The translations under genes and the position numbers were made by a program. The notes beneath the pieces were generated by a model. It did not search any database, was not told where the DNA came from, and saw nothing but the letters and a program-made list of their open reading frames with translations. DNA of 62,338 nt, counting the filler, from Dugesia japonica (lineage: Eukaryota): the NCBI GenBank assembly GCA_001938525.1. It is 5 parts of 5 records of this genome, joined end to end, with 100 filler letters (N's around TTAATTAATTAA, not from the genome) between each part and the next. Parts side by side here need not be neighbours in the genome. Positions count along the whole stretch, not along the records: positions 19,626 to 35,675 come from MQRL01580728.1; 4 more parts are not named here. One strand, written 5' to 3'. Below, in pieces: positions 19,626-53,777 of this stretch. Positions within the stretch are counted from its first letter, which is position 1. Each line of letters starts with the position of its first letter.

Positions 19626-20041
19626 CTCTTTTTACTTTAACACCTATTTCTATTTTTGAACACTGTTCACATGTTAAACCGGCAGCTCCAACTATGTTTA
19701 TTTCAGCCTGTTCCAACTCCCTACCTATTTCTCTTTTTGTTTCTGCTAACTGATCCTATACTGCTCTTAAACAATAATAACATGATTTTATTAATCGACT
19801 CTTTATTAATGGTATTGTTGTTGATTTGATTTCATTACATAGTTTACATCGGTTTTCACTATCGTTTACGTTTGCTTTTGGGCTAGCAGTATTCATATTT
19901 ATACTTTGTCTTGACCTCAAAGGATATCTGTTTTCGTCATTAAAAATTTCCGGTTTTTTATTTTTTTGTTTTTGTTTCTTTATTTCTGTCGAAAGATCTA
20001 CTTGATCGATTTTTGGTTCTTCATCTGTTGCCGCCGCTAAC
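19626..20041 (-). repeat. Diverged duplicate of the gypsy post-integrase Cys-rich tail
   Basis: Closely similar to 20217-20581 with scattered substitutions; continues further with CKLC..CYYC..AAGLTCEQC. Confidence 0.85.
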
Positions 20042-20340
20042 NNNNNNNNNNNNNNNNNNNNNNNNNNNNNNNNNNNNNNNNNNNNNNNNNNAAGTATACA
20101 TAAACACTTTGACCTTGAAAAAAATTTCCCACCAATCACAATCAAGTATACATAAACACTTTGACGTTGAAAAAATTTGATCTTGAGGGGGAGGGGTGTT
20201 TATGTGCGCTAGGATCTATCTACTTGTTCCAACTCTCTACCCATTTCTCTTTTTGTTTCTACTAACTGATCATACACTGCTCTTAAACAATAATAACATG
20301 ATTTAATTAATCGACTCTTTATTAAAGGTTGTTAATTTTA

Positions 20341-21728
20341 TTAATTTTTATTAATTGTTGTTGATTTGATTTCATTACATAGTTTACATCGGTGTTCACA
20401 ATCGTTTACGTTCACTTTTGGTCTAGCAGTAATCATATTTATACTTTGTCTTGATCTCAAAAGATATCTGTTTTTGTCATTAGAAATTTCCGGTTTTTTA
20501 TTTTTTCGTTTTTGTTTCTTTATTTCAGTTGAAAGATCTACTTGATCGATTTTTGGTTCTTCATCCGTTGTTGCTGCTAACTTGCATCTTGACACCTGCA
20601 CAAATCTTGGTTTCTTTAGTAGATTCCCTACTTCTTTCACTTTTAAATTCGTAGTTGTGATATCCAATACTACATAGAGACCCTTATTTGGCCATTTTAA
20701 TTTGTTTGATGTGCCAACCTCTATTGATGGTGTATTTACCAAAATTAAATCTCCGATTTTAAATTCATGTGGTTTGGTATCTCTGTCATATAGTTCTTTG
20801 TAACTCACTTGAAAGAATTTTGCATTTGATTTTGCTAATTTCCACAAATCTTCCATATGTTCTTTAATACCAGTCACATAATCACTTTCTTCCATATACT
20901 GAAATATCGGTGGTTGATGTTCTAAATCAATCGGCATGTTGCATTCTCGTCCATACATCACTTAAAGGGTGATGCTCTTGTTGCCGGATGTACACCCATC
21001 CTATAAGCAAATAAACATAAGTTTAACTGTTTGNNNNNNNNNNNNNNNNNNNNNNNNNNNNNNNNNNNNNNNNNNNNNNNNNNTCTTGTTGCCGGATGTA
21101 CACCCATCCTATAAGCAAATAAACATAAGTTTAACTGTTTGTCCCAATTCCTTTGATAACTGGATACGTACGTCGACAGCATTCTGACTAGAGTTTGATT
21201 AAATCGTTCAGTCAGCCCATAAGTCTGCGGATGATACGCTGAAGTTCTCAATTTGTGAATGTTGAAGTAGCTTGTAATTTCCTTCATTAGCTCGCTAATA
21301 AAATGTTTTCCTTGATCCGTTAAGATCTTCTTTGGACCGTATCGACTGAATAATTTTTCTACCAACACCTTTGCGATTTTGTCTGCTTTTTGGTCTTTTA
21401 ACGCAAATGCTTCTGGATACTTTGATAGATAATCCACAACTGTTAATATATAAACTTTCCCATTATCTGTTTCTGGAAATGGACCCACAAAGTCCATTGC
21501 AATTATATCCATTCGAGCTAATGGTACTGGTATTGGTTGTAATGGTACCTTTGACTTCTTGCCAGTGCTCCTTCTTGCTGCACATACTTCATACCGATTT
21601 ACCCAATCTCTAACGTAAGTAGTAATATGCGGCCAATAATATTTCGCTCGCAATTTTGATTCCGTTTTCTTTGCAGACATGTGTCCACCCAATAATCCAT
21701 TGTGATACTGTTCCAATATTTTAGTCAA
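20341..21728 (-). pseudogene. Gypsy integrase (HHCC zinc finger, DDE core, GPY/F-like region)
   Basis: YHNGLLGGH...YYWP...(C>Y)EVC; IAMDFVGP, ILTDQG, SAYHPQTYGLTERFNQTL, HPATRASPF, KWPNKGLYVV. Confidence 0.95.
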
Positions 21729-21729
21729 T

Positions 21730-24700
21730 TTTATCCTTGATTATTTCAACAACCGGTAGTTTGCTCATGTCAAACTTCGCTACCGGTCTACTTTGGGTAA
21801 ATATTATGGGTGCTTGTTTAATCAAATATGCAATCGCGATTGCAATTCTTGTGGGTGATGGACTTCCTGCAATTAATCCATCTACTGCTTCTTTCGTTTC
21901 ACTTTTCAAAGTAACTTTTGTTCCTTTCAAAGCAGGTAATTTTGTAATTAACGGCTCCAAAATTGAAGCAATTTTTTCAGATTCTTCCGTTATTTTTGCA
22001 CTTCCAATCCACATCTTTAGTTCTGGATATAATTTTAATAAAATTAGATGTATTAGTTTTTCCGTTGTCATTTCTTCTGATTCCATTTGTTCTAACATTT
22101 CTTGTGATACAACTGTTAGTTGCTTATTTTGCCTCACGTTTCACTTTGTTACTTTTTCTTGATTTGAAATTCATTAACCGTTGATTCCTCTTGAGTTCCT
22201 ACATCTTGTATTCTTTTTTCTGTCACTTCGTCTGACACATTCAATTCATCTACCGTTTCATCTGCAATTGTTTGTAATTCGGGTAATATCGGCAGTTCTG
22301 CATCAATATCCACTTCTTTGGAATTCCAATTTAGAGATCCTTCAATCTTTTGACTTCTCATTTCTCTTTCTTTTTCAGGCTCTACTTGAGTTAACAAGAC
22401 CTCGTCGTTTTCTTGAGTTTCTGTTCCTTCATCTTCACTTTCTGTAGAAGATGAACTTATTGATACTCGTATTACTGTTTTTGCTGCAATTGTTGATTGA
22501 GTTGCCCAGTCTTTGGTAGGACGTTGTCCAGCCGTAAATCTGGGCTTTTCTGCTAATACGTTTGTAGTTAGTTTCTTCTTCAGCAATTCTTTACCCACCA
22601 CTGGTTGTATATATATTTTATTTGGATGTCTCACTTGCACATCCAATGTTCCAATGATATCTTTGTTTAATAATTCCGGATTAATAAAAAAAAGTGAATA
22701 TGGGAAATTAAATGGCAATTTATTTTTTAATTGATCCACTATTTCATAAGCCATTGTTTCCACTCGTGTTTCTAGGCCGGTAGGTTCAATTATTCTGAAA
22801 GTAAATTTGAGAAGCTTTTCTTCTTCCATCTCTCGATTTTGCCATTTAGTAATTATAATTTTAAATTGATTTGGCCTCCAATCACATTCTTCTTTTAATC
22901 CTGATATTTGATAAGTTAAATCTCTCTTAATGATAAAACTCTTTTAATGATAAATCACTGCTGATTAGTTGATCCAATAATTGTTGCACTTCTTGTTTTG
23001 GTAAATTCTCTTGTTTATTGATGGTTGCAAATTGTTGTATTAAACTTTGCATGTTTACAATATTGTATCTGTTTCTTGTTGTTGCTGCTGCTATTGACTC
23101 GCAAGGTTGGCTTATTGGACACATTTCTTCGCTCAATTGATCTTGTAATCTAGATCTTTGTTCAGGTAGTATTATCGCTACCGTTTCTCGTATATCAATA
23201 TTTATTTCCTCTCCATGTATCTGTAATCCCAATGGCACCTCCGGATTAATCTCACCGATAAACAACTGAATCGTTTTTCTACACAATGTTTCTCTTGGTC
23301 GTTTTTTAGTTTACGGATTCCTTTCTTGATCTTCTGCTAAAAACACGTAAACATCCATCATCGATCCAGGCCAAATACCTGAAACCTTTACTGATTTCTC
23401 CTCATTTTCCTCGTTGATCTCTTCTCCACAATATATAGCGATATCTTCCCTTTTAGTTTCTAAACCAATTGTCTTTCCTCTTGGCATTTGCTTGTTAATA
23501 TACTTCAGTATTTCATTTATTAATTTCTCCCAAGTTGTAGTTGTTTTAATCTTAAATTCCTTTTCTGATTCATCTTGGAAATATACTGTAACATTTACTG
23601 ATTGCTTTGGTATGTTTTTAGCATGTATTTCCACAAATGTATTAACTAATTCACAGAACATTTCTCCTCCAATTAATTTCAATTAATTTAATTGATTTAT
23701 TACTTCTTCTATCTTTAAATTTCGCATTTGTTTATAATTTTCCTTTATTACTATTCCTACCTTGGTTAATGCCAACCTATATGTTGTCCATGGTTCGATT
23801 TCTGTTGTTATTTCTGCTGTTGACTCAATTTTCTCATCTATTATATGCGTAAAGCAATCCATTCGATCTATTTCCGTCATAAATATTTCCCTCATTCTTG
23901 CACCAATTCTATGTATTGGCTGTATTCGAAATCTTTTTGACATTTCATCATCAAGTTCTAATGTCAATTTCGTTATTTCTTCTGGTCGTAATGTAAATTC
24001 AATTAGATGCTCATTAATCTCGTTTAATTTATCATTTTCTAATATCATATAATCACACGTTATTCTATATTTATTCAATTCCTTCTTCAATGGCAGTTCG
24101 CTTATTATATCTTTCAATTCTCTTATTGTTGTAGTTTGAAATTTCGTAATAGTTTTAGATGTCAAACTTGTTGTCGACCCTTTACCTTCGCTCATTACTG
24201 GATAAAAAATTGACACCCCAAAATCGGCTCCAAGAATTGTCTCTTTTATCAGATCTCGATAACTCTTTGCTATTTTTATCCATTTTCTTCTTTTTTCCCA
24301 ATTAATTTGAAAATGAAAACAAGCGTCGCATAATAAATTCATCATCTTCCAATAACTTTGTTTCGGAATAATCTCTTTCCAACTAATAGTAATTTTTACT
24401 AAATTATCCATTGCTTCTAAATATCGACTATTTTCTCACAATTCATCGTCACTCGTCACTAGTTGTTAACTCGATTCGCTATACATTTCTGTAGCTACGC
24501 TGTTTGCTTTCTTTTTATTTTTCTTTACTTTATTCAAAACTTTACTCGAAAACGCTCTCAACATACATATTTGGGCTTTAGGTCCTTCTTTATCTTCTGG
24601 CATTGAAATCGATGCTTGACTGTCGTAATTATTATATACCATAACGTTTTTTTATACTTCCCGTCTAATGATCTCATGATTTGCACTGTTGTTTGAAGAT

Positions 24701-26090
24701 GTAGATGTGACAGTACTGAGGCTTTAAATAAAAACAATCTCTCGCTTTCAAATAATATCACTTCAGTGGCACCATCAGGCTTCAATCCATAGCTGTAAAT
24801 GTGCTCATCTACCGCTTCTTTATTAACAATCCCAACTGGTGAACAAATTATATATTGTTCGAGTGGTTTTGGCCATTTTAGCTCATTTAATGCTTATAAT
24901 AATGCTTCCACGGTTGTATTCTTTAATGAAAATTTTTGAGGAATATTTTGGTATCCAAATCGATGATTGTATTTAGATATTTGTTCTTCCATCAAATAAG
25001 CCATATTCATACAATCATGTGCGGGTTTTATCGCTTCCATCCTACTAATTTTATAATCATTCGTAGTTGACTCTTCTAAAATTTCTTTTTCATATTCATC
25101 GATTATATACTTCCATTGTAATTTAGTTGTTACATCTATGTGTCCTGGCTCTGTTAACTCAACGATATGGTTCATTATCGACCAATACGTTTTTCGATCA
25201 ATCTCATATTTTCTTTTTCTGGTTCTTCTCATTATTGTATCGACATATTCTCTCATTTGTGATTGACATTTTATTGATGTTTTCATCTTTTCGTTCGTCA
25301 CAAGTTGATCCATCGTCATTTCCGTTCCCTGTTTTGTATTTTCGTCATTTTTTACTGAGTTCTTTGATGCTTTTGCTTTTTCTATCTTTTTCTATAATTA
25401 CCCTTTTAGCTAGTTTCTTTTGTCTGTCCAATAAAGTTTGTACTCTCATCGTATGCTTAAAAAATGTCTTTTCCAAAGATTTAATTATTTCATTTATTGT
25501 TCGATACTCAAAATGCATAAACNNNNNNNNNNNNNNNNNNNNNNNNNNNNNNNNNNNNNNNNNNNNNNNNNNNNNNNNNNNNNNNNNNNNNNNNNNNNNN
25601 NNNNACCGAAATGTGTTCTTTAAGATTATCCTGATCAATCACTCTTGATGATGAACATAGTACATATTCGTATAATGGTTTCGGCCACTGCAGTTCATTT
25701 ATCGCTGTTATCAACCCTTTGACTGTTGGTGCTTTAATTTCAATTTTTCTCATTATATTCTGATATCCACATGGTATGGATTTAGTTTCATCATTACTTG
25801 TTGCGTATATGTATCTCTCAATTGACGGTCCCGCCACTTTTGGATCGCCTGTAATCGATTTTTTCAACGGCTTCATTATAATGACTTTGTAATCCTCGGG
25901 ATAAGTTTCTGTCATCAATTCCACTTCATACTTTTCCGCTTGAGTCTTCCAATTCATTTTGGTAACTGCATCTACATCCTTTGATTCCACGAGTTCAATT
26001 AAATGATTNATTATTTTAAAATATGCTTTTCGCTTAATTACATCTCTAAAGTCTTCAACAAGTTCTAGTTTTTCTTCTATCTGTCGTTGA
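21730..26090 (-). pseudogene. Non-canonical Gag-Pol insert: three ~200-aa diverged tandem repeats plus SUMO/ubiquitin-like modules
   Basis: Same-strand ORFs linked by single stops or frameshifts; repeated RK.YW.IMNH..EL..W...YE and TT...L...I.EL...K.L..Y.IC...EHI motifs; SUMO-like VNVTVYFQDESEKEFKIKTTT at 23341-23598. Confidence 0.65.
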
Positions 26091-27844
26091 ATTGCGGGAT
26101 GATTTTCTAACGACTTATCGTCTAAAATCTTCTTGGAACGTATCATATTAATTTGTCCAGCATTAGAATTCTTCATTCCTCTTGCTCTCAATCTATCCTG
26201 AGCTATTTGTTGTTCTTCCAATTGTTGTCGCAGATACTCTTGCTCTTGNNNNNNNNNNNNNNNNNNNNNNNNNNNNNNNNNNNNNNNNNNTTGTAACATA
26301 TTTATTTGATGCTGAGTTTTGGCTCTGCTACTATTTATTTCCTGCTTTAATGCTTCATTTTGCTGTCTCATTTTCTCAATTGTAGGATTTAAATTTGGTT
26401 TTGCATTAAAGTTATTATAATTTGATTTATTACCGTCATTTCTGAAGCAATTTCTACTAATATCTCCTGACTTATTACATATATAACATACCGGTGGCTT
26501 GTTCTGAAAACAAGTTTCTCCATTATGCCCGGGTTTCTGACAAGTTGTACAAATTTTTATTGTTTTTTCTGGCGGTCTAGATTTGCACTCTCTTGCTCGA
26601 TGTCTAATTTTTCCACAATTATAACAAGTCATATTTGATGATTGCCAGTTCACTTGTTTGTTGTTATTATTATTCGACTTAAAATTATTCGTTTGTTCTC
26701 TCGTCTTCTCAGGTGATAGTGACTTCAATAATGGCTGGGCTCTTGGGATGAAATCAGATACCTTCACAACATCTTTAGTCTGTTCATTTTGCTCTTCTAT
26801 TTGAAACACTTTACCCACTTTTGGTTGACGAACGTCCACATTATGACATACTCTTGCCGAATTTATGGCCAACTCTACGGTTTGCGGTTGAGTTAAATGC
26901 ACATGTCTCTTTACGTCCGCATTTCTCAACCATTTTATAAATGCTCCAATAATAACTCCTTCATTAATATTATCTCCCATAGCTATTTTCCCAAGTCTTC
27001 GCAATTCAGCCGCAAATGAAATGATTCAACTTTATGCTGTCGTCTGTTCATAAAATCTTGCATTTCCCGACCTTGTAATGCAGATGCTTTAAAAATATCT
27101 AATAACAATGTTTTAGCTTCTTCCCAAGTTTTCACTTCTTTATCTTTCTCAGTGGCTTTATCCCAATAAATAGTTTTATTAGCTCCAACTAAATACTAGT
27201 GGTAAACGTTCTACTGCTGTTTCATCGCTCCAACGACATGCGTTGATATGAATTTCATAGTTTGTGATGAAATCGAGTATTTTATCTGGATCTCCGTCAT
27301 ATTTTTCACTACTGAAATCAGTTCTCCATTCTTTACGTTTATCGTCCATATCCGATGTATGTTGTCTACTATTTAACGACATTTTATTTAATTCTTTGAT
27401 TTGCTCTTGATCACTTCAATCTTCTGCTTCGCTCTCTGATTCCGAATTTGTTTGAAAATGCGACACAGGTACTGCGATATTTGCTTTATCGGCTATTGAA
27501 TTATCACTATATTCGCTATCTGTTATATTCGCTTCTACTATCTGATTCTGATTTTCAATTTTTGACTCTGTTTCTATATTTTCTCTTGATTCTAAGGATT
27601 TCCTTGTTATTTTTAAAGGAAAGCAGTTAGGTGATTGATTTGTTTCTGAGGATATTGGCTTTTTAGATGTCCTTGATTCCTTTCTTGTAAGTGATGATGC
27701 TCTTTGGGACTTTGCTTGGTGCTCTTTTCTACTTCCAACAATAGATCTCGTATAATATCTGGGCTTTTCCGAATCCTCAATGGCTATCGTAGTATAACAA
27801 GTGTTCTCTTTAATCTGTAATATAATAATATGCTGCCCTTTTCC
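26090..27844 (-). pseudogene. Gypsy Gag with capsid-like domain, three CCHC zinc knuckles and coiled coil
   Basis: EKYDGDPDKILDFITNYE...WSDETAVERLP; CYNCGKIRHRAREC, CTTCQKPGHNGETC, CYICNKSGDISRNC. Confidence 0.92.
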
Positions 27845-29042
27845 CTGAAATATAAAATAAAAGCCTTTCGGCCTATGCATATTAATTAGGAATAAATTAA
27901 TCAATTAGCCTTAATCTTAACTTATTCATTTCATCTAATATTACAATTAATGCTTATTTCCTAGTTTTTTAGACAATACTATCTTTTATGTAAAAATCTA
28001 CTTAACTCTCAAGATTAAATCCTACACATATCATTTTATTATTTTACAATATTATTCAATCTACCTTTACATGTTATGTTATAATACTAAAGTGTTTTTA
28101 ATTTAACTAAATCTTTTTAACTGGCACTTATTCAATTTATTATTTATTTATTTTCTTATATTTTATATTGCACTCTGATTATTACAAAATTTATTATATT
28201 ATCCCTATTTGGTTTTGCTTCTAATTTTTCTTTCAATTTGTCAAGATAATATTTCAAAATTTCTGTCTTCAAAATTAAAACCTTCGATTCTCTAAGTGTT
28301 GTTTTCTCGAATTTATGCGTAATTTTAACTAGATTCTACGATTCCTACTCCCATTCAGATTTTCTATCAAATCCCTTCTTCGTCTTCACTCCAAGAACTC
28401 AATGATTTTCTATAATCTTTCAAAAGTGTCAGCGAGTTTTCTTTCAAACCCAAGGTTTTCTTTCAAACTCAAGGCTTTCTTTCAAGCCCATTTCTAAAGT
28501 TCTTCACACTTAGTCCCAACTATTGTGTACTTCAAATAAATTAAACTTTCATAATTTTTCAAAAAGAAATAATTTTCTCAAGTTTTTAGATTCCCATACA
28601 AAGAATACTGCTTTCAAACTTTCCAACAAAGCAACTCCAAATTCTACAACTTTTCTTTCCTTCCGCCAAAATTCAAACATTTTCCAATAATAAAATGAAT
28701 ATGTGAAGTACCATGCTAACAAGGTATGTTAAAAATAACCAAAAAAAATGATTATAAATTTTTGTTTATCACTAAACTCTTCATATTAATATCTTTATCA
28801 TCGTTTAAAAAAATCTTTACAAGTTTTATTAAATTTTGTTAGGTAAATTATCAGGAGAATTCTCGCAATTTCAAAAATTTTTCAAAAAAATAAACACCTT
28901 GCAGAGTTGTGTAAGGAAAATAACATGCTAAATACTTTATTTTCAACAAATTGTAGTCATTAAATATGACATCAAAAGTTGTCATACATCCGAAGACAAA
29001 TCAAATCGCATTTGTCTTGGATGCCGCAATTGTTCAAAGTCG

Positions 29043-29429
29043 TCAAGTTTTTTCTTTCTTTACTCCTTCTTTAATGAATTTCTCCAGACATTTTGCTTTT
29101 TCATCTTTATCTTTCAGAAGAAACTCCATTCTTGCTACACCTTCGGCCAACCGGCTCATCTTCACCTTAAGGTCCTTGATGATCTCTCTCAACATAATGA
29201 CCTCTTTTCCAACTTTTCTCTGATAGAAAGCCACGCGCTGTCGGCGGGTGTATTCGAGGCAATTCTGGATGGTGAGCTTTGTAATGAGCTTCCGATGGAC
29301 GGGCCAATGGACCCAATATTTTCCATCCTGGTCAATGAAGTCATCATCATTATCGCTATCTGGTGGACTGCGCGTCAGGCTGGTGTTTGGCAGGGTTCTG
29401 TATTTTGTTTGCTTATTTTGGCTGGTCAT
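29043..29429 (-). CDS. Intact accessory ORF (128 aa from MTSQ) in the leader of the gypsy element, unknown function
   Basis: GC-richer open frame inside an AT-rich leader, same strand as gag; W-rich motif then coiled coil; TTATTGTAG acceptor-like site directly before the ATG. Confidence 0.5.
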   Translation of the reverse strand: MTSQNKQTKYRTLPNTSLTRSPPDSDNDDDFIDQDGKYWVHWPVHRKLITKLTIQNCLEYTRRQRVAFYQRKVGKEVIMLREIIKDLKVKMSRLAEGVARMEFLLKDKDEKAKCLEKFIKEGVKKEKT

Positions 29430-30907
29430 GCTACAATAAACATTTACCATTAAACACTGGTGTTACATACTCATATATCAAACCAATGATAGATATATAA
29501 CTTATTATAATGGGCTTGTAAATAATTGAAATACACCAAACCAACACAACTTGTAAACCCTACCCAAAATTGAAACTTCATTAGATATTCAAGGGTAAAT
29601 AATTTTATCATCAACTTTCATCATCATTAATGTTATCTTTTTATTCAAAGTAGAACAATTTTATATCCAAAAAGGAACCAATTTAACTATGTTAATCCAC
29701 ATTATCTTTAATATCGTTTTAAGGTGAATCAATCATTTTACAACTAATTTCAATTTTATTTTTCTAATCAGTATTAAAAACCACATTTAAAGGTGGATTT
29801 CATCATTACTTTATAATACTTTAATATCCCAATTCAATGTAGTCCATTGTTATGAAAATCTGGCTTTCATTTCATTTATCAAAATTTTACTTTCAATTTT
29901 AATTAATCATTAATTTATCAACTAACTATCTCTAATTTTATAATTTATTTTCTCTGGTTTAATACATTTCTACCACAAAATTTCTGATCTTATGTCGACT
30001 GTTTAGTTTGATTATTTCTTATTATTATCTCTTATGTTACTTCTTAGTTAAAACTAATTTCATTGCTTATATCAATACTCTTATATTATCATCCCAATTT
30101 ATTGTCACTCTATCTTACATTAACATTTTATACAGTGTAATTTTCATTGCTGCAAAGTCAAATTTATCTTTATCGTCATCAAGATCCTCTGTTAGTCCTC
30201 GTTTTATTTTTAATTGTTATCATTATTTAAAATTCCTCATAATAACCTTCAGTGTTTGACTCATGTTTCAGTATTATTTTAAAATCATTAATTAATAATA
30301 AAAATAAAATATTATCATAATTTATGACGAGTCACTTGTCTCTTTCTCTCATACTAATTTTTGTTCTTTATGACCAATTAGCAGAGAATCATAGCTCAAG
30401 TGATTCGCCATCTTATGTTAGGGAGTACATTGAGTGTATCAAAAGGTTTTTCTCTTTTTCTTTGTTTTAAGTATTATTAATAAACGTTAGCATTATCTTT
30501 TCATTGGGGTAAAACAATTTTATCTCAACATAAATCAATTTAAGTTTTGTTAGCCAATAAATAATTTCAACATAAGTTATAGATGAATCGATTTTACCAG
30601 AAATAAATCGGTGTCAATCCACATTAACTTCGACATCATTTCAAAGTTAATTCATTTTCAATAATAAAATATTCTATTTTATTTGTCATTTAACCACAGC
30701 TGTGCCCTCAACATTTCCCACTTTCAACAAAAGTTTCATCACTACTTGTTGACAATTTAGTTTTATCAATAAAATTTTTCTACGAATAAATTTATTAACG
30801 TTAATAAAATTTTCAATAATTTAATAAAACTATCCCATCTTATTTAACTTTTGATTTAAATAATGAACAGCAAAACAACAAACAAAATGTTTACGAAAAT
30901 AATTATT

Positions 30908-30925
30908 AACCCGGCTGAGCCCCCA
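30908..30925 (-). promoter_or_regulatory. Primer binding site complementary to tRNA-Pro 3' end
   Basis: Minus strand TGGGGGCTCAGCCGGGTT, 8 nt after LTR end CCCAACA; compare canonical Pro PBS TGGGGGCTCGTCCGGG. Confidence 0.85.
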
Positions 30926-30933
30926 AAAATACT

Positions 30934-31180
30934 TGTTGGGTTTCCACATGTTTTAAAATAATTTATTTTTCCTATTAGGGGCATACTCCTGAAAACCACA
31001 AGTATCTTAGCGTCGTGTGTCGCTTACACGCTCTCGGTCTGGTTCCGGTGACTCCTTGTTACGGGAGTGCAGTAACCGCCCCTTTAGTCTGGGTCCAGCG
31101 GACTAGAGTGTTAGTCCGTCTTAGGAATATGTTGTTTCTATTTATGTGTGATGCATTACTAACAGGACTTCAGTAACGTT
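30934..31180 (-). ncRNA. Structured LTR R/U5 RNA motif, copy A
   Basis: AAGAC-GGACUA/UAGUCC hairpin-GCUGGACC...GGGGC/GCCCC closing stem enclosing further hairpins; ends in CCCAACA. Confidence 0.55.
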
Positions 31181-31377
31181 TTTTTTCTTTTAAAAAAAAA
31201 ATAATAAAAATAAATGCAATTTCGTATCATTTATCATTTTATCTTATCATATTTATCATGTTTGCAAATTTAAACTCAAATAAAAAATTTATGATAAATC
31301 AGTATTTCATATATTTTATTTATTATTCAATTCATTTATAAATTAATAATAAAATAATAACTCCGTTTGATATTCAA

Positions 31378-31827
31378 AACTTTAATATTTTCATAACTGT
31401 TCAACACAAATAAAAATAATCTATTTCATTAATAACAAAAGAAGAAATTTCATGAAGACCTACACAAAAATCCAATAACCCTTTCTTATTTCACTATAAG
31501 TAAACTCGGATATCCTTTGGTTCTTCTCATCATAATTCAAAAATTCAATTAATTATCATCGTAAATTTTATCGTAAGNNNNNNNNNNNNNNNNNNNNNNN
31601 NNNNNNNNNNNNNNNNNNNNNNNNNNNAACTTTAATATTTTCATAACTGTTCAACACAAATAAAAATAATCTATTTCATTAATAACAAAAGAAGAAATTT
31701 CTTGAAGATCTACACAAAAATCCCATAACCCTTTCTTATTTCACTATTAGTACACTCGGATATCCTTTGGTTCTTCACATCATAATTCAAAAATTCAATT
31801 AATTATCATCGTAAATTTTATCGTAAG
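31378..31827. repeat. ~200-bp direct duplication flanking an N gap
   Basis: 31378-31577 vs 31628-31827 near-identical, few substitutions. Confidence 0.85.
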
Positions 31828-32029
31828 ATTTATTTGGTTTATTATTATTTTATTTCAAAGGGTTTATTTCTCTCATCTTTAATTTTAATTAATTAAATTA
31901 AGATTCATTTTCATTTTATCTAATTCTCTATTCAAAATTTTATTTTTCTAATTTTAATACTAAAATGTTTTTCGTGATTGATTTCATCTCGCATTGTAAA
32001 TTATAGATAAAATCTAATAATGATTTAGT

Positions 32030-32385
32030 GTGACAGTGTAATTCATTATCATAAAATCTACCTAAATTTTTTCATTATCTAAATCAGTAATTCCATAANT
32101 AAAAGGTTTTGTATTATAAACTTGAGTTACTACAAATACTTAATTTGTCCATTTAGCTGTAAATTCTTTTTCGAATTTGTATTTATATTTAAAGATTCTA
32201 ACTCGATATCCAATTTTAAATTTCTGTTTAAAACTAAAGTTATCATTTTCATGATTATGATCTTTGATTATTTCTTTTATTTTATCTGGATTTTCACTAG
32301 CTTCTTTTGGAGTTGTTTTTATACTGGAGTGAATTGTATTATTATAATCATTTACAATTTTATCCAACAAGATTTTATTTATTAA
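32030..32385 (-). pseudogene. Maverick-type integrase C-terminal fragment
   Basis: LDKIVNDYNNTIHSSIKTTP...KFKIGYRVRIFKYK..FEKEFTAKWT...TKPF.YGITDLDNE..LGRFYDNEL. Confidence 0.85.
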
Positions 32386-32752
32386 TTTTTTTTAAAATCA
32401 ACTCAAAAAATTTTTTAATTAATACAGAAAAGTCTTAGATATTTTAGATATACTATACTTAGAATTTTTTAATTTTAAATTTTTGTATTTTTTTTTTAAA
32501 ATTGTAATATTTTTAAAATAATTTTCAAAAAAATACATCTAACATCTAAATCTCCTTGATTTGTGTCTGGCAACTAACCTGATAATTCACCATAAATATT
32601 TTTATAAGTTGAACTAGTTGTTACAAAATTTAACATTGTAGATGAAATTTCTGGTTATTCTGCGTTAGCTCATTCTGTATTATTTCACTCTTCATTAGCG
32701 TTAGCGAATTACTAACCATTTTATTAATAAAATTTTGCAATACCTTAACTGT

Positions 32753-32810
32753 ACGATTACTATACGATTACTATACGATTACTATACGATTACTGCACGA
32801 TTACTATATG
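32753..32810. repeat. 11-bp tandem repeat (ACGATTACTAT)x~5
   Basis: Direct reading. Confidence 0.9.
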
Positions 32811-32833
32811 ATACGATACTATAACTAAAATAT

Positions 32834-32885
32834 TGTTGGGGTTTTACTCTAGGTGGGTTGAATTCTTGTATGATTCTTCTTAGGT
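32834..32885 (-). repeat. LTR terminus fragment, same family as the LTR ending at 57494
   Basis: tgttggggttttactctaggtgggttgaattcttgtatgatt matches the reverse complement of 57450-57494. Confidence 0.7.
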
Positions 32886-33861
32886 CTGAGTGCTTTGCTT
32901 TCTTTTCTGACGACCATTTTTTTTTAACTTTGAGTATACTTATTGCCACCCTTATTTCACCCCAACGATATTAATAAAATATTAATAATAAAAAACTACT
33001 GTTTTATTCTGATATTATATTTTTTCTTTTAGGATTTTATTTTTATTCTTTGTTTGTGTTAGCCCAATTTGTCTTTCTAACAGTTCAAGTAGTATGTAAA
33101 TGGTTTTTGGGTATCATCTTTCAGACAGGAAGAGAAGAACGTGAAAATGAAATAGTGAAGAAAGTACTCATAAAAAATTAAAAGCCTTGAAGCCCAACAG
33201 AGTTAAGCTTTTCTGTAATTTAATTCGGATGAATGATTTGAGTTTGTTGAACAGGTATTATCTTATCAAAAAGACAAGATCTGGAAATATAAACAGAAGA
33301 TCAGATCAGAAAATATATTTAAATTTAATGTAGAGATGCCACCAATTTATTCTTGCTGATCTTTGCATCTTTCAATGATAAAATTTAGATTAGTATTTTT
33401 GAGTTATAGATAAAACTTCAAACTTTGCACGATTATTATTGTTAGAAAAATATTATTACCATTATACTCTCAAGGTGTTTAAAATGTGTACTTACAAATT
33501 ATTTATATTCAAAAAGTGACCAAGTTCTAAATACAATAAATAATAAAATCTCGGAAATGCAGACAAAAACTGTCTATCAATGATTCAATTAATTATTTAA
33601 TATCACTTGTTATTTGTTTTAATAATATTAAAAATTCTTAATAATTATAAAAAATATTTAAGTTGTTTTACTTGTCATTTATTTGAAAGTTTATTAATTT
33701 TCTTTTACCGAACGGAAAGTAATTTCAGAAGTAAATTTGTATTTGCTTTACAAATCAATGTTAGACTTCAAATAAATAAAAAGACTTCAGTAATTAATTT
33801 TCATGGAAATAATTTTAGAAGTTTCATAAAAATTATTTTGTTAATTAAATTAATTGTTATT

Positions 33862-33865
<4 letters not shown>

Positions 33866-33926
<61 letters not shown>

Positions 33927-34016
33927 NNNNNNNNNNNNNNNNNNNNNNNNNNNNNNNNNNNNNNNNNNNNNNNNNNNNNNNNNNNNNNNNNNNNNNNNNN
34001 NNNNNNNNNNNNNNNN

Positions 34017-34083
<67 letters not shown>
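33866..34083. repeat. (ATT)n microsatellite spanning a gap
   Basis: Pure tatt/att repeats. Confidence 0.97.
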
Positions 34084-34084
<1 letters not shown>

Positions 34085-34530
34085 TAAGACCTTTACAATA
34101 AAATTGAATCCGTCATTTTCATTTCTATTTTGCACTGTAATTTCGAAATTGAAGTAAAAATTACTTTTGTACTTTTGCTTTCAATGTACTTGGAGTGCCT
34201 AATGAGAAATAACACAAACCCAACTTAAATGCAGAAAACTAATCAATTAGAAATGAATTTCGTGACTCGGAAATAAAGTATTTGTAGTTTGCAGTAGAAA
34301 TGAATGTAAAGATCTCATGATAATCGAAATAAAAGAATTATTTAAATTTAAGAAAATGAAATTTGAAAGAAAATTCTAAGGAATTGATAAATAGAATGAA
34401 TTTTTTATGTAGGAAGGAGATATTAAAATGTAATAATCAGTTTTTAATTAAGTATTTACTTTGTCTTAACAAACGTGTGTAGGAATTGTGTTAATATGAG
34501 ATTTGGAATTATTTTTTTGAAATTTTTCAA

Positions 34531-34650
34531 GTCAACGTTTATACTAGGTTGAATACATTCGATCTTGTTCAATCTCAGAAGTTAAGCAGCAGGAAACCTC
34601 GTTAGTACTATAATTGTGAACAGTGACAGCTGATTTCCAGTGCAAGAAAG
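34531..34650 (+). pseudogene. Degenerate 5S rRNA copy (pseudogene or SINE3 head)
   Basis: gtcaacg..atac....ttgaatac..tcgatcttgt.caatctcagaagttaagcag......cct.gttagtact aligns with eukaryotic 5S rRNA positions 1-80 including the box A region; 3' part diverged. Confidence 0.72.
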
Positions 34651-35675
34651 ATTCCACCACCTTGATTCTAGATTCTTACGTATTTAATGCGAAACTTGTT
34701 AGTCCTTTCAACGTCTCTTGAGTTTCTGCCTTAATAATTTTTCGAAACTTTCAGCATTAGATAGTCAAACTAATTCTGGTAGTTGATAATTAATAACATA
34801 TTTTTTTATCTTATGACATACATTAGAAAACATAACTACGCTACCATTAATTGGGTTTCTTCGGCATGTTTATGGCGGCGTGTTTAATACATGTATTTCT
34901 TTTTCTAAAATACAAGAAAGTTAGTATTTTGTAAAAGCATACATTTTCATTGAACTTTTAGATTGATATCAACAAGTGCATTCTCAAATGCAAAACGACG
35001 TGGAATACTACAAAACCAAAAGTTTATGAAAATGAACAAGAATTCAGTTTGGTTTAATTAATAAACAATTTATCATAAACTTTGAGTTTACACATAATCT
35101 ATTACAAGTAAGTCAGAATCAAATAAAGAGTTGTTTAAATTTGATAAAAAGAAATTAATGTAATTATCTTTTATCTCTTTATCTCCAACGGTTTCTAGTA
35201 TCAATTTGAACTACTTAAAACTTTGCGACGCACATATTAATTTTTATTTTACATAGTAAAGCATGATTTTAAATTTGAATCATATTGAATCTAAGTGTGG
35301 TTCAATGTTTAATAAACATACTCTCATTATCTCGTCTATAATTAACAAACGCTATCTCTTATTTAATTTCAATACACTTAGTAAATTTATAAACCAATTT
35401 AGAAAATCTCAGGCTTAACTGGCCTTTTGATAATTTTCCACGACACAATTTCGTGGCTTTTAATGCACAGAAAAATGAATTAATGAAAATCAAAGTTAGA
35501 TTTCGAATCCAGATTAAATTGTTGAATTCGTTTTGGGGACGCTTTTGGGACTGTTTTTTTTTTAAATTAGACTTTCAATTTTTATAAATCCCTACAAATT
35601 TTTGGTTTCTAACACAAATTATTTCTCATACTTCTTTTATTTTTGTTTTCAACACTAATTATATATATATATATA

Positions 35676-35775
35676 NNNNNNNNNNNNNNNNNNNNNNNNN
35701 NNNNNNNNNNNNNNNNNNNTTAATTAATTAANNNNNNNNNNNNNNNNNNNNNNNNNNNNNNNNNNNNNNNNNNNN
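35676..35775. other. Artificial scaffold-joining spacer
   Basis: N44-TTAATTAATTAA-N44. Confidence 0.97.
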
Positions 35776-35959
35776 AAATAAGAGTTTCTATTTCTCAACA
35801 AAAACAGAACTTAAAAAATGCCAACTACTCAGAAAAGATTATGATTGATTCCTGAAAAAAGAAATTCTCCTGAAAATGTAGACTTAACAGAAATGCAAAA
35901 AGAACTATACTTTGTGCATTGGAGTTCATGGAATTCTAGGACATCAGATAAAACTTGAA

Positions 35960-36330
35960 GCCTATAATACTGAAAGCTATCTTACTTTTATTCATAATAC
36001 AATTACTTTATTTCGATATTCATAAAACTGCAATCTTAATAATGAATAATGTGTATCTTCCTAAATCATTATTAGTGCTTCAAAAATTGAACTTCAAAAA
36101 TATTGCTTATAAATTTCTCATTCCATATCCACCAGAGTTTAATTCAATAGAGGAAATTTTCTCATTGATAAAATCAAAATACTATACTGTTAATACTGAA
36201 AACAGAATGACTTATTGATTGAAGTGTTTAGAAATAATTCTTTGCAGATCTAATAACTACTGCCAAGAGTCTCGAGCATTTTACAACAATAAGGTGGGTA
36301 GAAATAACTCTTAGAGGAGCTTTTCATAAA
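35960..36330 (+). mobile_element. IS630/Tc1-like transposase C-terminal fragment
   Basis: ILIMNNV..PKS...YKFLIPYPPEFNSIEEIFSLIKSK (compare MDNA..H...FLPPYSPELNPIEE.FS..K). Confidence 0.8.
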
Positions 36331-37031
36331 ATTTAAATTGAATAAAAAAATTAATAATTTCATGTACTTTTTTATAAACTTACTCTTTAAATATAGTAAA
36401 TTTGCTATTTAATAATTTTAAATATATTTGGTTTCAAAATATTTTTATGAGTATATAGATTTGATTAAATGAATATATTGATCTGAAGAACCCTGCTAAC
36501 AAATCTTATTCGGAAAAGAATTGTGTTGTCTTAGTTATTTCATTCATATTTAGAATATTATTGTTATTAACTCTTTCATTACTCAAATGATGACAAATAT
36601 AGTTAGTGAATACTTTTTTCTTCAGGAATACAAATAAATGCTTTCAATGTTTGGTTTGTTGTGATTGGTCAAATCCATATGACACACATACAACATGAAT
36701 GCAGTCTTCTGTACTTATTTAGTGTGGTATTTTTTGTGTTAGAGAATAATAACTATCTCTATATAATATAAATCTCCAAATTTACAAGAAAGCAGAGATT
36801 AATAAAGGCTTAAAGTATTGAAATTAATATATTTATGATAAATTTATTAATATATATTTGAGTCAGTAAATTCTTTGAAAGTAATGNNNNNNNNNNNNNN
36901 NNNNNNNNNNNNNNNNNNTATCATTATTAGTTTTATGGTTTAGAATTAACAAAGTAAAGTATTACAGAAATGATTTAAAATAAATATTGTAGAAAACAGC
37001 TATTTTTACTTCTATATGACACTTCATTTAC

Positions 37032-37246
37032 CATGTCAGTAATTGAATGGTAAACATATTGATCACCAGCCAAAAAATAACACCAAGTAAAACCATATAT
37101 GATCTTGGGGGTTGGAAGAAAGCAAATATAATTTTAGAATGAGAAAGATAGTCGGAATCAACAAATTTGGATATGTAGTCATTTGCTGTTATCAACAATT
37201 GCAATACACATAATTGAATCCAAATATACATACCTTGAAGGAAGCT
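37032..37246 (-). CDS. Possible exon of an unidentified membrane protein
   Basis: Open frame with two hydrophobic segments between a ttAG acceptor-like site and a TG|GTAAAT donor-like site; no recognised family. Confidence 0.3.
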
Positions 37247-39189
37247 CTAAGTATTGAAAAAAGTTCTTAAATACATTCTTTTTAATATTGGAATTATTTA
37301 AGTTTAAAATTAAGTTTTTTATGATTAAATTGATCAATAATTAAATTAATTAGATTAGATACAAATTTAAGATCATATTTTTTATTAATTTGAAATGGTA
37401 CTCATCCATAAACTGTCATAAGCTGACGATAAAATTTGCCATATAAACAATCGAAGTTTTGGAGGGAAATCGTCTTAAAAATTTGAATTACCATATTTTA
37501 AAGAATTAATAAAATCTCTTTATATATAACAAATATTTGTGCCGATTTCCGGAAAATTTCAAAGTAAATTTTTACGATTTTTATTGGTTATAATATTAAT
37601 GAATAATTCTTATAAGCGAAAGAATAACCGTTAAAGCTTAGAAGCGAAAGTTTTTGTGGCAAACCATATGATTGAATATTATTGAAAAATATGAGTAGAT
37701 AGAAGTTGATATGACAAGAAATTGAAACTCAGACGGTGGTGGTTGAATTACTTACTGACTTTCTTGTCCAAAAGTCATTTGAACTAAAGTGTAAATTGTT
37801 AGTGGAAAATATGAATTTAATTTATATTTTCTTAATTGAGTATTATTTATATTTAATATTATGATGTGCCTTATCAATAAATAATGATTCTATTTGATGT
37901 TCGTTTTATAGATTAATATATTATTTCACCACTTTATTATACATTATTAATGAATTTATTATATGATTTCGTTTATTTATCACGTTGATTTAATTTCATG
38001 AATTTATTTTATTGATTATTTAATTTTATAATTTGTTGGGTCCGCAATTTAACAAAAACTATTAACAGTTAACTTTACTTTGATTTTAATTATTCTTTTA
38101 CCTTGACAATATTTATGACAATTTATTTAACATTTTGATTTCTGATTATGGGTAATTAATCTTTAATTGAAGATTTTAATTTGATTATAGATTTTAATTA
38201 TTATTTTCAATTTTATTGTATTTCTCGGGTTCTATTCATTTGATTTGGATTATAATTTAGTTTTATTTTAATTATAGTTTATAATGATTTAAATTTAATT
38301 TTGATTTATAATTTTTTATTATAATTTTGATTATATTTTAATAATTATTAATTATCTAAAAACTGGGTTAATGAATTTGTCATTTTTGTGTGACATGTCT
38401 TATAATTGTGCTGTTTTTAATAATTTTTATTATTTTTATTGACATTTTGTTGGAAATGTTATCACATAGTTGTGGGTCACTTCAAAAATAAATATCTAAT
38501 GATTTGTAGTCAATTAACCCTTAAAACAATTACTGTAGTAGCCGAGAAGGTGGAAAATCTAAGGTTTGACAGAGGCGAAACAGTAATAATTTTTTTAATA
38601 CTTTAAGTTGTTGACGCCAATTAAAGATGTATTATATTGTTATCGAATAAAAATTTTTAAGGCAAAATTTATTCTGATTTTTTATTTATTATTAAATAAA
38701 TATATTTAAATACAAAACTCATGAAGTTGAGCATTTATAAACTCAACAAATTTTTGCTTTTATAATCTTAGTAATATTAATAACTTTATTATTTAGTTTA
38801 AATCTTAGTAATTTGCGACTTTAGGTCCACCCATGATCTTAGGAATTATAATCTTAATTTGCATTTTAGTTATATTATTTATGTCTTAGTTTATTCATTC
38901 ATATAATTTTTTATGATTTCTTATAAATCATACTAACGAATCACTTTGGATATGCTCGACCTTAAATTTAGGATTAAATTTTAGTGACATCACGTATTAC
39001 TAACCTTCAGATATCAAATAAACAAAAGATACAGATAAATTTCAGAAACAACATCCGAATGATAAATAAACCAGTGGAATGTTTAAAAAACCAGTAATTG
39101 TTAAAAATAATTAAGAAATAAGTGAACTGATAAAACAAAGCCAAAATATTTTACTCATGATGGAATTTTAAAATGTATTATTAGAATGA

Positions 39190-39495
39190 ATGTAATAGTG
39201 CTACCCAAAAATTTGAGACAGGCGATCATGTTACAATATTATGATGACACTCTCGGATGTCATTTATCAAGTCGTAAACGTTATCAAGAATTAAAATGAA
39301 ATATTATTAGAAGACAATGGACCAAGATATTAAAGAATAATGTAAAACATTTGAAACGTGTCTAACCAGGAAAAACACGGGCACAAAAATAAAGGTATCA
39401 CTAAGATCTATGCATGTACCATTAGCACCTAGGGAAATTACAGCAATGGATTTATTGCTCCTCTACCAGAAAAAGTAAACGGAAAATTCTATATC
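39190..39495 (+). mobile_element. Gypsy integrase zinc-finger fragment related to the 20341-21728 integrase
   Basis: IVLPKNLRQAIMLQYYDDTLGCHLS...KYY...ETCLTRKNTGTKIKVSLRSMHVPLAPREITAMD..PLPEKVNGKFYI. Confidence 0.85.
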
Positions 39496-39849
39496 GAATT
39501 ATATTAATTTCGATAAATTTTGAGTTACTTGATATTTTCGAAAAATGTTACCAAATCTAGGAAGACAGCTGTATATATTCGTTATTAAGCATTTTTGCTT
39601 AGGTGATTTTTTAACTTTACAGTCACTTTTACCTACTGAGTTAAATAATACTAAATTCGAGTCCATTGCCGTTAGTTGCGCACATATGTTTGAGTGCTAA
39701 AATCTGAACTTTGAGATTTATTCACCACAAAATTTTATTTATTTCATTTCTACAAATAAATAAGGTTTGGAGTAAAGGTTACAAAGGTCCATAGAGCGGT
39801 AAGGTTTACTAAAGCACACATTTATAAAAATTAAATTGAAACATAAAAT

Positions 39850-39960
39850 TCATTAGGAGCAGAATGTAAAACAGAGCTTGAGAAAAATTACTACAAACTA
39901 TTGAACAACAGTTTGTATCGGAAATCGATAGAAAATGTAAAGAAAAGGAAGAATTTGCGA
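39850..39960 (+). mobile_element. Maverick protein-primed DNA polymerase B fragment (motif B)
   Basis: ECKTELEKNYYKLLNNSLYRKSIENVKKRKN (compare KLxNNSxYGKxxEN). Confidence 0.8.
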
Positions 39961-41303
39961 TCTTCTTGCGAAGAATTATTTTGGTAATATAATATATAGA
40001 ATATACAATTATTTAAAATAGAATGAATGAAAAAAAAATTTGTGTGCCGCGAGAAAATTTATATTTTAGTGTGCCGCAGACTAAAAAAGTTTGCGAGACA
40101 CTGATTTAAATTCCGGTGACCTTTAAAAATAAATTTTGATTTCATTTCGCAAGTATGAACTTGTTCCGATAAATTTAGATTTAAAAAAAGAACACGAACA
40201 AACATGCTCAGTATCAAATAATCGTACTACAGAAGCGGCAATGAATATCAAATTGTAAAATGCCAGTAAATACACACCAACAATGAATTATCAACGGCCG
40301 TAGTACGCATGATTCAAATCTGAAAAAAGCAAATACTAACTGAGAACAATATAGACACACATTGTAAAAAGTAATGATACGTGGCTATGTTTAAATTTGA
40401 AGAAACAAACAATTTAAACTGAATTTAGAAATATGAAACTCGAAGAAAGATGAAAGACGGCGATATACAAAAAGATTTAAAAAACTATTTAAGCAACAAT
40501 AGAATTACTTAAAAAAAAACAAAACTAAATAACTCTGAAAAACTTTAATTCGTTATTTTGAGAACTATTTCGGTTTAATCTCTTAAAAAGANNNNNNNNN
40601 NNNNNNNNNNNNNNNNNNNNNNNNNNNNNNNNNNNNNNNNNTAGAAAATGTAAAGAAAAGGAAGAATTTGCGATCTTCTTGCGAAGAATTATTTTGGTAA
40701 TATAATATATAGAATGGACAATTATTTAAAATAGAATGAATGAAAAAAAATTTGTGTGCCGCGAAAAAATTTATATTTTAGTGTGCCGCAGACTAAAAAA
40801 GTTTGCGAGACACTGATTTATATTTCGGTGACCTTTAAAAATAAATTTTGATTTCATTTCGCAAGTATGAACTTGTTCCGATAAATTTAGATTTAAAAAA
40901 AGAACACGAACAAACATGCTCAGTATCAAATAATCGTACTACAGAAGCGACAATGAATATCAAATTGTAAAATGCCAGTAAATACACACCAACAATGAAT
41001 TATAAACGGCCGTAGTACGCATGATTCAAATATGAAAAAAGCAAATACTAACTGAGAACAATATAGACACACATTGTAAAAAGTAATGATACGTGGCTAT
41101 GTTTAAATTTGAAGAAACAAACAATTTAAACTGAATTTAGAAATATGAAACCCGAAGAAAGATGAAAGACAGCGATATACAAAAAGATTTAAAAAACTAT
41201 TTAAGCAACAATAGAATTACTTAAAAAACAACAAAACTAAATAACTCTGAAAAACTTTAATTCGTTATTTTGAGAACTATTTCGGTTTAATCTCTTAAAA
41301 AGA
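39929..41303. repeat. ~660-bp direct duplication flanking an N gap; each copy includes a hAT/MITE-like terminus
   Basis: 39929-40591 vs 40642-41303 with a few substitutions; aaaagtttgcgagacactg is the reverse complement of a CAGTGTyTCxCAAAC-type TIR, preceded by repeated gtgtgccgc. Confidence 0.85.
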
Positions 41304-42740
41304 ATTATTGATTGATACAGCGAATTTATTGTCAAAATTAGAGAACTCTACATTAACATTTTAGTAAAAATCGAGTATTAAGACAACATTACTATTCAGT
41401 GACTCAAAAATTTGGAAGCATCATTAGTTTTATTCATAAAAACTAATTTAATTTCTGTTGTAATGAGATAATCTACTAGCCGGATATTAGACCTTAATAA
41501 TTAACTATAGCCCATAGAGCCCCGAAAGAATTAATATTAAAATGTGGTTACGAATATTTGATTATGATTTAATGAAAATCCCATTGAAAGAATGGTGGAG
41601 ATCNAATTTNCTATACATCTTTATGATATTCTTTATATTATTTTTATGTTTCAAATATTTATCAATTTGGATTGTAAAGATATTTTAATTTTTGATAATT
41701 ATATTTGACCAATTTTAAAACCTCGTTTTTTACAAATTGATTTTTTTTTAATTGATTTTATCATAGTAATTATATTGTAGGGTTTTAATAGCCTTAATTA
41801 TTTGAATACTAAAGTCAGATTATGACATACATAGGCATAAACAGATTATAATTAAATATTGAATTCATCCGAATTATTGTTATCACTTAAAATGTTATCA
41901 CGATGATATTAACCAATAATTTTTAAAATTTTGTTTTATTACGCTGGATTCAGTTTATAATTAATCTTGATTAGAAGGTTTTAGAATTTTGACTATCATA
42001 AAATTTCAAATTTTTTAATTTAGTTATTTCTCTTATTATAATTAATTTTGAAATTTAATCCCGTTTTAATTTTATAAATAATAATTAGGTTTCCTTAGTA
42101 ATTTAAAAGATAAAATGAAGTTGTTTTAACAATTTGAATTTTAATGATTCAGTTTAATGTAACTCTATCATAACCTAATAACATTTAATAGTTAATTGAA
42201 ATTAGTTGGGTTTTAAACCACTAAGATATGTCGAACGTATTTCGTGAATTAACTATTTGAATTAACTAATACTATTAAAGTTATTGAACTATATTTTGAA
42301 TTTTTGTAAATTTAATTTTTATTCTTCAGTTAGACTCGTTTGTTTGAATTCCTAATTATAATTTTTGTTGTTAATCTCACTCCTTTGTGACGAATTTTAT
42401 ACAATCCTTTTAGTTAAAATATCTCATAGAAATATAAGAAGCGACTAAACTGTATTATTAATACTATCCTCTATCACAGTAGTTATAAGGATTGGACTTA
42501 GCACGTTTTTCTTTAATTATTATAAATGAAATAATGCATATCTTATAATTGTCGATACTTTTACCAATAACTCGGAGTGAAATAAATAAATATGATTGGA
42601 TTATTATAAGTAGAATTATGATCATCGAAAAACAGTGGCAAAATTCATCACTAAGAGTCGTTATAGAAATGGCGATTATAGAGAAATTTTCGCTGATAAC
42701 GCTTAAATTTATGACAATAAACTACAAAAAATATTTTAGA

Positions 42741-43217: not shown

Positions 43218-43395
43218 AGTTTGATACGATATCAAGCATTTTGTTGTGGACAGAGAACATATAATGATGAAATAATGATGATATTNNNNNNNNNNNNNNN
43301 NNNNNNNNNNNNNNNNNNNNNNNNNNNNNNNNNNNNNNNNNNNNNNNNNNNNNNNNNNNNNNNNNNNNNNNNNNNNNNNNNNNNNNNNNNNNNNN

Positions 43396-50800: not shown

Positions 50801-51007
50801 TGTTGGGTTACTAGGCTTTTGATGTTAACTATATTCACTCCTGCGTATCTAAATTTTGAATGCTATATGGTTTTTTAAAAGAAAAGATTGTCTGGGGGAT
50901 GATACCTAGTAACCACAGATACTTGTGATGTCTTCTCCTACATCACGATCCCCATTCCCGAGTTCAGCGAGACTACGCGGTATCTCGTCTTTGACAGAAA
51001 GTTCTGC
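50801..51007 (-). ncRNA. Structured LTR R/U5 RNA motif, copy B
   Basis: AAGAC-GAGA/UCUC hairpin-GCUGAAC...GGGGAU/AUCCCC stem, GUGAUGU/ACAUCAC hairpin; internal GGUUACUAGG is perfectly complementary to terminal CCUAGUAACC; ends in CCCAACA. Confidence 0.55.
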
Positions 51008-51196
51008 TTCAAATTCCATTCTGCTATATTTCTATATGCTTTTATCTCGTTCTATCCCAACAATTTTAATTTATCCTTAAACCAATATTTCTTTATTTAA
51101 ATTTTTCATCAATAATTTAAATCTCTCTTTTAAACAAAAGATTTTAAAAATAAGATTATCAATCACACAAAAATTTCAACTTGCTTTTAAAAACTG

Positions 51197-53569: not shown

Positions 53570-53777
53570 TATTACTGTGGTTCATAACAGCAGAAAGTAA
53601 GACGCGATACTGCAAAGTTGCGCTGAACCGGTTTAATGAGGGTCATGTGAAAGGGGTGATATAAACGTTTGAAGTTTTCAGTTATGCCCCTAGATTGATA
53701 AAAAACGACAAAATAAATGACAATAAAATTCGAGAAGAGAAAGTTAATTAAAACACCAAAATTCTAGAAAACCAACA
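53570..53777 (+). ncRNA. Structured LTR R/U5 RNA motif, copy C (degraded)
   Basis: AAGAC-GCGA/UUGC hairpin-GCUGAACC...AAUGAGGG...GUUUUCAG..AUGCCCCUAG; ends in CCAACA at 53777. Confidence 0.45.

Follow-up and report, generated by a model that had tools for sequence, protein, structure and literature searches.

What function could preserve a multi-stem RNA motif in long terminal repeats (LTRs) whose flanking sequences cannot be aligned? The question arises from a 62,338-nt stretch of Dugesia japonica DNA (the window), which consists of five scaffolds joined with spacers and has a GC content of 17–35% per kb. The window holds decayed retrotransposons and an exon resembling a P-type (probably copper) ATPase (15220-15534, plus strand; PF00702, E 4e-09). 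No tRNA genes were found in the window, and the whole of it lacks any Rfam match at gathering level. The three motif copies described in an earlier note were all found at their positions, on the third and fifth of the five scaffolds: copy 1 at 30978..31122 (minus strand), recognized by the anchor pattern and the fold, copy 2 at 50894..50991 (minus strand), and copy 3 at 53599..53690 (plus strand).

The shared anchor pattern, AGACG-N8-25-CGCTGRAC-N4-8-AAWGRGG, has three matches in the window and none in 100 shuffles. Since the pattern was derived from the same three copies, the hairpin P2 that it encloses serves as the independent test. P2 contains 7, 6 and 6 pairs in copies 1, 2 and 3, respectively; 18 of 18 cells are paired and both sides have changed in three of six pairs, so that the stems indeed change letters and still pair, as had been claimed. 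Slid controls are 22–44% paired, and 21 of 500 shuffles attain the observed score, which is based on three sequences only. The folding z-scores are modest (-2.1, -0.6 and -0.15). BLAST between the flanks of the copies gives no match, in agreement with the description of the flanks as unalignable. In viral and metagenome contigs the anchor pattern has 161 chance matches (43 viral and 118 metagenomic, the metagenome scan taking in 63 of 64 parts); a 6-bp hairpin is present in five of them, a downstream CCCC in 26, and both in none. These matches appear to be due to chance, and the two best hairpins fall within protein-coding frames. A covariance model of the 5' core did not find a fourth copy in the window.

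The copy 1 hairpin P2 (31099..31118, minus strand) has 7 bp closed by C-G/G-C, with pair probabilities of 0.93–1.00; nearly all other copies carry U-G at 31113/31104. The closing stem P3 of this copy (31082-31078 with 30982-30978, span 30978..31082, minus strand; pair probability 0.82) encloses three hairpins, two variable ones and that of L5 (31000-30989). The corresponding elements of copy 2 are P2 (50987-50968), P3 (50953-50948/50900-50895), P4 (50946-50925) and L5 (50917-50906). Copy 3 is the weakest: its P2 (53603-53622) has pair probabilities of only 0.15–0.19, and its closing stem pairs via a second G-run instead of the anchor G-run (0.92 versus 0.03). It is apparently a decayed motif. 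Several further pairings were tried and rejected. An outer stem that would give a three-way junction forms in copy 1, but the upstream flanks vary while the downstream letters stay; an L2–L5 kissing loop would be lost in a 47% variant at 50979, for which no partner change is listed; and almost no family 1 copy can form a 3-bp hairpin in J2/3. The sequence CGCUGAAC resembles the 5' end of 28S rRNA, a relationship also rejected since Rfam gave no support for it.

Conservation of the motif was assessed in public sequencing reads, compared at 85% likeness for copy 1 and 80% for copy 2; the depths given here are summed over contigs and do not equal copy numbers. In run X4 the depth for copy 1 is 14,000–42,000 over the motif, 3,000–5,200 over the LTR end, 185–23,600 over the upstream LTR and 86–1,900 over the leader, and the motif is the most shared part of this LTR in DNA contigs. 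RNA reads of run X16 branch into other flanks at 30979 and 31123, the edges of the copy 1 motif. For copy 2, L5 and the 3' arm of P3 reach a depth of 31,000–45,000, against 3,000–4,900 over the 5' core, 760–2,400 over the spacer and 320–1,650 upstream, and ten joints connect the 3' part of the motif to the LTR end through other spacers. Run X11, labelled as a second organism, gives the same depth shape for copy 2 (about 700 and 35 versus 4–27), with carry-over possible between X11 and X4, which share a study code. In both families, and in X11, high depth is restricted to the motif and the terminus of the LTR. RNA reads cover the motif and come mostly from other copies.

The variants found in these reads mostly respect the fold of copy 2. 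Among 40 variant rows for this copy 18 are inside the motif, 11 of them outside the four scored helices and seven inside. Pairing is preserved by five of the seven helix variants and disrupted by two, at 50985 (4 of 6 X16 reads) and at 50928 (partner change seen in loose ends only). Positions 50940/50931 show a joint change from U-A to C-G, with depths of 310 and 325, and four one-sided changes give G-U pairs, on the motif strand only. AAGACG, CUGAACUC and the GGUU of L5 have no variant among the rows listed. Among the 23 of 153 loose-end rows listed, two other 7-bp P4 hairpins, one with three double changes, can be made out by eye and indicate further families. For copy 1 there are at least eight rows of motif variants, and the eight listed include five unpaired changes, one wobble and two that disrupt predicted pairs; five of these eight are private changes of the window copy.

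Selection at the level of DNA, or simple shared ancestry, would be an alternative to selection on RNA structure. AGACG in all three copies matches the downstream promoter element (DPE) pattern, and the weak folding z-scores are also consistent with a promoter module or with common descent that involves no selection on RNA. The double changes in P2 and P4 and the one-strand wobbles are, however, unexpected for a double-stranded DNA element or for drift; nothing that acts as DNA could account for wobbles restricted to a single strand. We therefore regard this explanation as extremely improbable.

The Rfam search, extended to E 10, gave no ribozyme match, only single weak chance matches (E 0.24, 2.2 and 0.91), which agrees with the previous observation that the motif matches no recognizable hammerhead, HDV, twister or pistol consensus. 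With the P2 pairing and the conservation in reads, this bears out the proposal that divergent LTR families share a conserved cis-acting RNA structure: the motif is a real RNA structure under selection, undescribed in the literature covered here.

The element that carries copy 1 is the best resolved. The motif ends 44 nt upstream of CCAACA (30934..30939, minus strand), the 3' end of a 5' LTR that possibly starts at 32035. A tRNA-Pro primer binding site (PBS; 30910..30925, minus strand) begins 8 nt past the LTR end, and 14 of its 16 letters equal the complement of the human tRNA-Pro 3' end as printed in PMC12217144. The degenerate Ty3/Gypsy element body (19626..30909, minus strand) runs off the scaffold end and includes, all on the minus strand, a zinc-knuckle gag (25508-27025), a weak SUMO-like match (23311-23682, E 0.008) and a Gypsy-type integrase (20341-21740). 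Since PBS, gag and integrase lie downstream, the motif strand is the sense strand of the element. Searches with seven homologous proteins (six long pol-type and one integrase) found no reverse transcriptase (RT); gag and integrase are present without RT in the assembled element, which the scaffold end cuts. The copy 1 element would be a deleted or non-autonomous Ty3/Gypsy derivative. No relatives of its integrase were found in viral contigs.

Additional coding sequence was observed in this element. About 4 kb between gag and integrase is unexplained, and the open reading frame there has no match in an Atlas search; a repeated domain at 24894-25391 resembles, by eye, part of 25508-27025. A GC-rich frame of 139 amino acids (29046-29462, minus strand), which has no Pfam match, lies in the long leader before gag and is perhaps an accessory open reading frame. 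The element shares with the giant planarian Gypsy elements Burro and GYPSM1 a CCHC-knuckle gag, a long unexplained coding region, a SUMO-like PF11976 domain (weak here), a very AT-rich host and a high copy number, as far as the accessible text of PMC6431247 describes them. In contrast to them it is about 11 kb long and shows no RT; the likeness is one of domains. The AT content and this domain set are in line with a planarian host (PMC11410931). The same text describes no LTR RNA structure for Burro or GYPSM1 (PMC6431247).

Copy 2 resides in a 262-bp solo LTR (50801..51062, minus strand) whose ends are inverted over 7 bp and which is flanked by a 4-bp target-site duplication. It has both TG...CA termini and the duplication, whereas copy 1 has the 3' end only. 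In an end-pair scan this LTR was one of six pairs and the only one with G-rich ends, and in one contig position 50795 connects directly to 51062, with 266 bases absent, as expected of an empty site. As the unit is a solo LTR, adjacent gag and RT pieces may have another origin. Next to it is a second decayed Gypsy element (48541-50466, minus strand) with gag knuckles and an RT fragment (PF00078). Contigs of both DNA runs cross the family-2 LTR end (50793-50801) into AT-rich or TAA-repeat flanks, hinting that this family prefers such targets. For copy 3, the end-pair scan found no matching 5' end with a target duplication, so the assignment to LTR families stands for copies 1 and 2 and lacks a 5' end for copy 3. 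No PBS is seen for copies 2 and 3, the loose ends of family 2 being mixed flanks only.

The distances from the motif to the LTR-type end agree with those reported before (44, 93 and 87 nt beyond the motif ends in copies 1, 2 and 3), but the placement of the motif in U5 does not. A poly(A)-type hexamer follows the motif in all three copies, 31–35 nt before the LTR end: AATAAA in copy 1 (30962..30967, minus strand; 34 nt), the variant AATATA in copy 2 (50830..50835, minus strand; 35 nt) and ATTAAA in copy 3, where hexamer and CCAACA LTR-type end span 53747..53777 (plus strand; 31 nt). From the order of these signals, the motif is probably in R or U3 of the LTR. Its place just upstream of the hexamer in every copy would suit a 3'-end element that promotes polyadenylation there or shields the RNA from decay. 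That role appears very unlikely, as the spacer between motif and hexamer shows little conservation and differs in length (about 10 to 60 nt), the sequence contains no ENE-type U-rich internal loop, and a poly(A) loose end is absent among the rows listed.

The motif combines a compact invariant core with peripheral hairpins that can be exchanged and, possibly, a pseudoknot. Such an anatomy could also be expected of a self-cleaving ribozyme of an undescribed class, which would process the RNA of the element at each of its LTRs, like the hammerheads of retrozymes and Penelope elements. The cores of hammerhead (CUGANGA and GAAA around three stems), pistol, twister-sister and hairpin ribozymes are absent from the copies, as is hatchet by Rfam; the HDV L3 pattern is absent from all three, and the strand order of its nested double pseudoknot is not seen by eye. 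A twister-like heptamer occurs in copy 1 only. Moreover, cleavage in R would be expected to strip cap and poly(A) tail from elements that have open reading frames and hexamers, and there is no pile-up of RNA read ends, a weak test with 11–153 fragmented reads per run. Retrozymes and the Penelope PLTR resemble the present units in having a conserved structured RNA in a short LTR of similar size, a PBS and 4-bp target duplications, and differ from them in that the planarian LTRs have no hammerhead core and the element retains gag and integrase in remnant form along with a poly(A) hexamer (PMC6765202). On balance we find self-cleavage distinctly unlikely; if the motif does cleave, it represents a new ribozyme class.

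The reading that we rank first follows from a complementarity that is absent from the earlier note. The invariant strand UGRACY is fully complementary to the universal tRNA T-arm motif GGUUCR, a property of 32 of the 4096 hexamers; its variable R and Y face U and G, so that either letter pairs. In copy 1 the strand UGGACCC (31091..31097, minus strand) forms seven contiguous pairs with the T-arm of tRNA-Pro (PMC12217144), the tRNA named by the PBS of the same element. The copy 2 strand (50956..50966, minus strand) could form 11 pairs with tRNA-Pro (one a wobble) or 10 with tRNA-Gln; nine of nine pairs were computed with a 9-mer probe, and the longer counts were made by eye against PMC12217144. 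The copy 3 strand is UGAACC (53624-53629). When a Pro T-arm 9-mer chosen from the copy 1 PBS is used as a probe, the UGRACY strand is the best site in all three copies, with 7, 9 and 6 bp, values reached by 1.5%, 0.01% and 6.9% of window 11-mers. A subfamily of family 2, represented by six RNA reads with an agreement of 0.7, shows 11 Watson–Crick pairs with human tRNA-Gln (by eye; PMC12217144), and this match extends six letters beyond the fixed core, for which we estimate a chance of about 1% over all tRNA types. All these comparisons used the human tRNAs printed in PMC12217144, which may differ from those of the host.

As its fixed core is complementary to the T-arm, the motif likely helps to hold the tRNA that starts reverse transcription. 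We propose, with a probability of about 0.45, that it is a reverse-transcription initiation element of divergent Ty3/Gypsy LTRs, of the primer-activation type, which would provide a second grip on the primer tRNA. Once the tRNA 3' end has annealed to the 16-nt PBS, the T-stem would come apart and leave the 5' side of the T-arm (approximately nucleotides 47–57) available; in HIV and RSV such opening of the T-stem by the PBS duplex is established (PMC3185550). The freed side could then pair with the UGRACY-N strand located between P2 and P3, while the P3 domain of about 50–100 nt would loop out and draw this strand near the PBS. Until the primer arrives, the strand may be masked by the invariant GUU of L5. 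L5 can pair with it over 4–5 bp in copies 1 and 2, in pseudoknot order, and over 4 bp in copy 3 (by eye); both the J2/3 and L5 sides are invariant, so that this pairing shows no covariation. Given the probable location in R or U3, either end of the RNA is a conceivable site of action, the 3' end being the one used in Ty3.

Several observations speak against this proposal. The T-arm complementarity is post hoc, one among several ideas tried, and it covers 6–11 of about 25 fixed letters, i.e. under half, so that AAGA, the C-G/G-C base of P2 and the L5 letters have to be explained otherwise. Agreement between strand and primer was checked in one family only and adds two letters beyond the fixed core. 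Copy 3 pairs over only 6 bp, and the motif is missing from an LTR-like unit of 134 bp (32834-32967). In HIV, too, the primer activation signal (PAS) is a matter of dispute (PMC3185550).

Precedents for extended pairing with the primer tRNA are the HIV-1 PAS and the RSV U5-TpsiC interaction (PMC3185550; PMC11251516). These signals also consist of a short LTR-derived strand upstream of the PBS that is complementary to the 5' side of the T-arm and is proposed to be masked by pairing within the template. They are 8 nt long and lie in retroviral U5, whereas some 170 nt separate the planarian strand from the PBS downstream of it; this strand is probably within R or U3 and forms part of a multi-stem fold that is kept across families with unalignable flanks. 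The bipartite PBS of Ty3, with its part in U3, and Ty1 likewise use sequence outside the PBS to pair with the primer T-arm (PMC5371799; PMC11381356), but these are yeast elements with tRNA-iMet and a short 5' PBS, in contrast to the 16-nt Pro PBS of copy 1, and the motif has no evident sequence likeness or shared fold with them. The full-text literature searched, in the parts accessible, contains no structured RNA in Gypsy LTRs of flatworms or other animals. On a wider and doubtful extrapolation, the pseudoknotted LTR fold would be a new class of RNA machine in retroelements. It could cleave itself, as a ribozyme of a kind so far undescribed, or it could be a switch triggered by tRNA: the T-arm of the primer would displace a T-arm mimic within the fold, and a swappable strand would set primer identity across the animal Gypsy radiation.

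A signal bound by protein offers another account of the fixed letters. Families that use the same trans-acting machinery could share a packaging signal for Gag or nucleocapsid, or a nuclear export signal, which is in line with a scaffold that covaries while the letters of its junctions and loops stay fixed. The AAGA between stems resembles the MPMV CTE loop. The motif is also kept by the copy 1 element, which, having no RT, would depend on cis signals. On the other hand, the CTE core motifs (AAGACA opposite GACGGG in an internal loop) are absent, and no self-complementary 6-mer is present in copies 1 or 2; the dimerization signal suggested earlier likewise lacks its loop palindrome in copies 1 and 2, with two palindromes in copy 3. 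Packaging or export would also leave unexplained why the variable extension of the strand fits tRNA T-stems. In Ty3 the packaging and dimerization signals are located in UTRs and gag (PMC11381356). We therefore consider a packaging or export signal unlikely.

If the reverse-transcription reading is true, a high-copy motif with covariation across many families would make the primer rule testable by comparison alone, since any change of the PBS should be accompanied by a matching change of the strand. Extended pairing between primer and template has been debated in HIV for two decades and mapped in few retroelements beyond yeast. The motif would also be useful as a marker, based on structure, of LTRs whose relationship escapes a sequence search.

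Other parts of the window show further features of LTR type. A fourth GC island (57262-57494, plus strand) precedes a CCCCAACA end and contains a strand with about 8 pairs to the tRNA T-arm, followed by AAGGG and a downstream complementary GGUUCG; its CCCCC-UAGA end is as in copy 3. It has no good P2, was missed by the covariance model and also carries a B-box match, and it is possibly a distant or decayed member of the motif. The ends of the 134-bp unit (32834-32967, minus strand), GTTGGGG and CCCCAACA, are near-inverted; the unit apparently has a 4-bp duplication, ATAT, and its 3' end is common with the end at 57494. Near-identical duplications that span 50-N gaps at 31378-31827 and 39929-41303 are probably assembly overlaps. 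Two frames bear a likeness to Polinton components: 17505-18086 (plus strand), presumably a packaging ATPase, and 32143-32391 (minus strand), presumably an integrase C-terminus; a Pfam search gave no confirming match for either. The latter frame ends beside the candidate LTR start at 32035.
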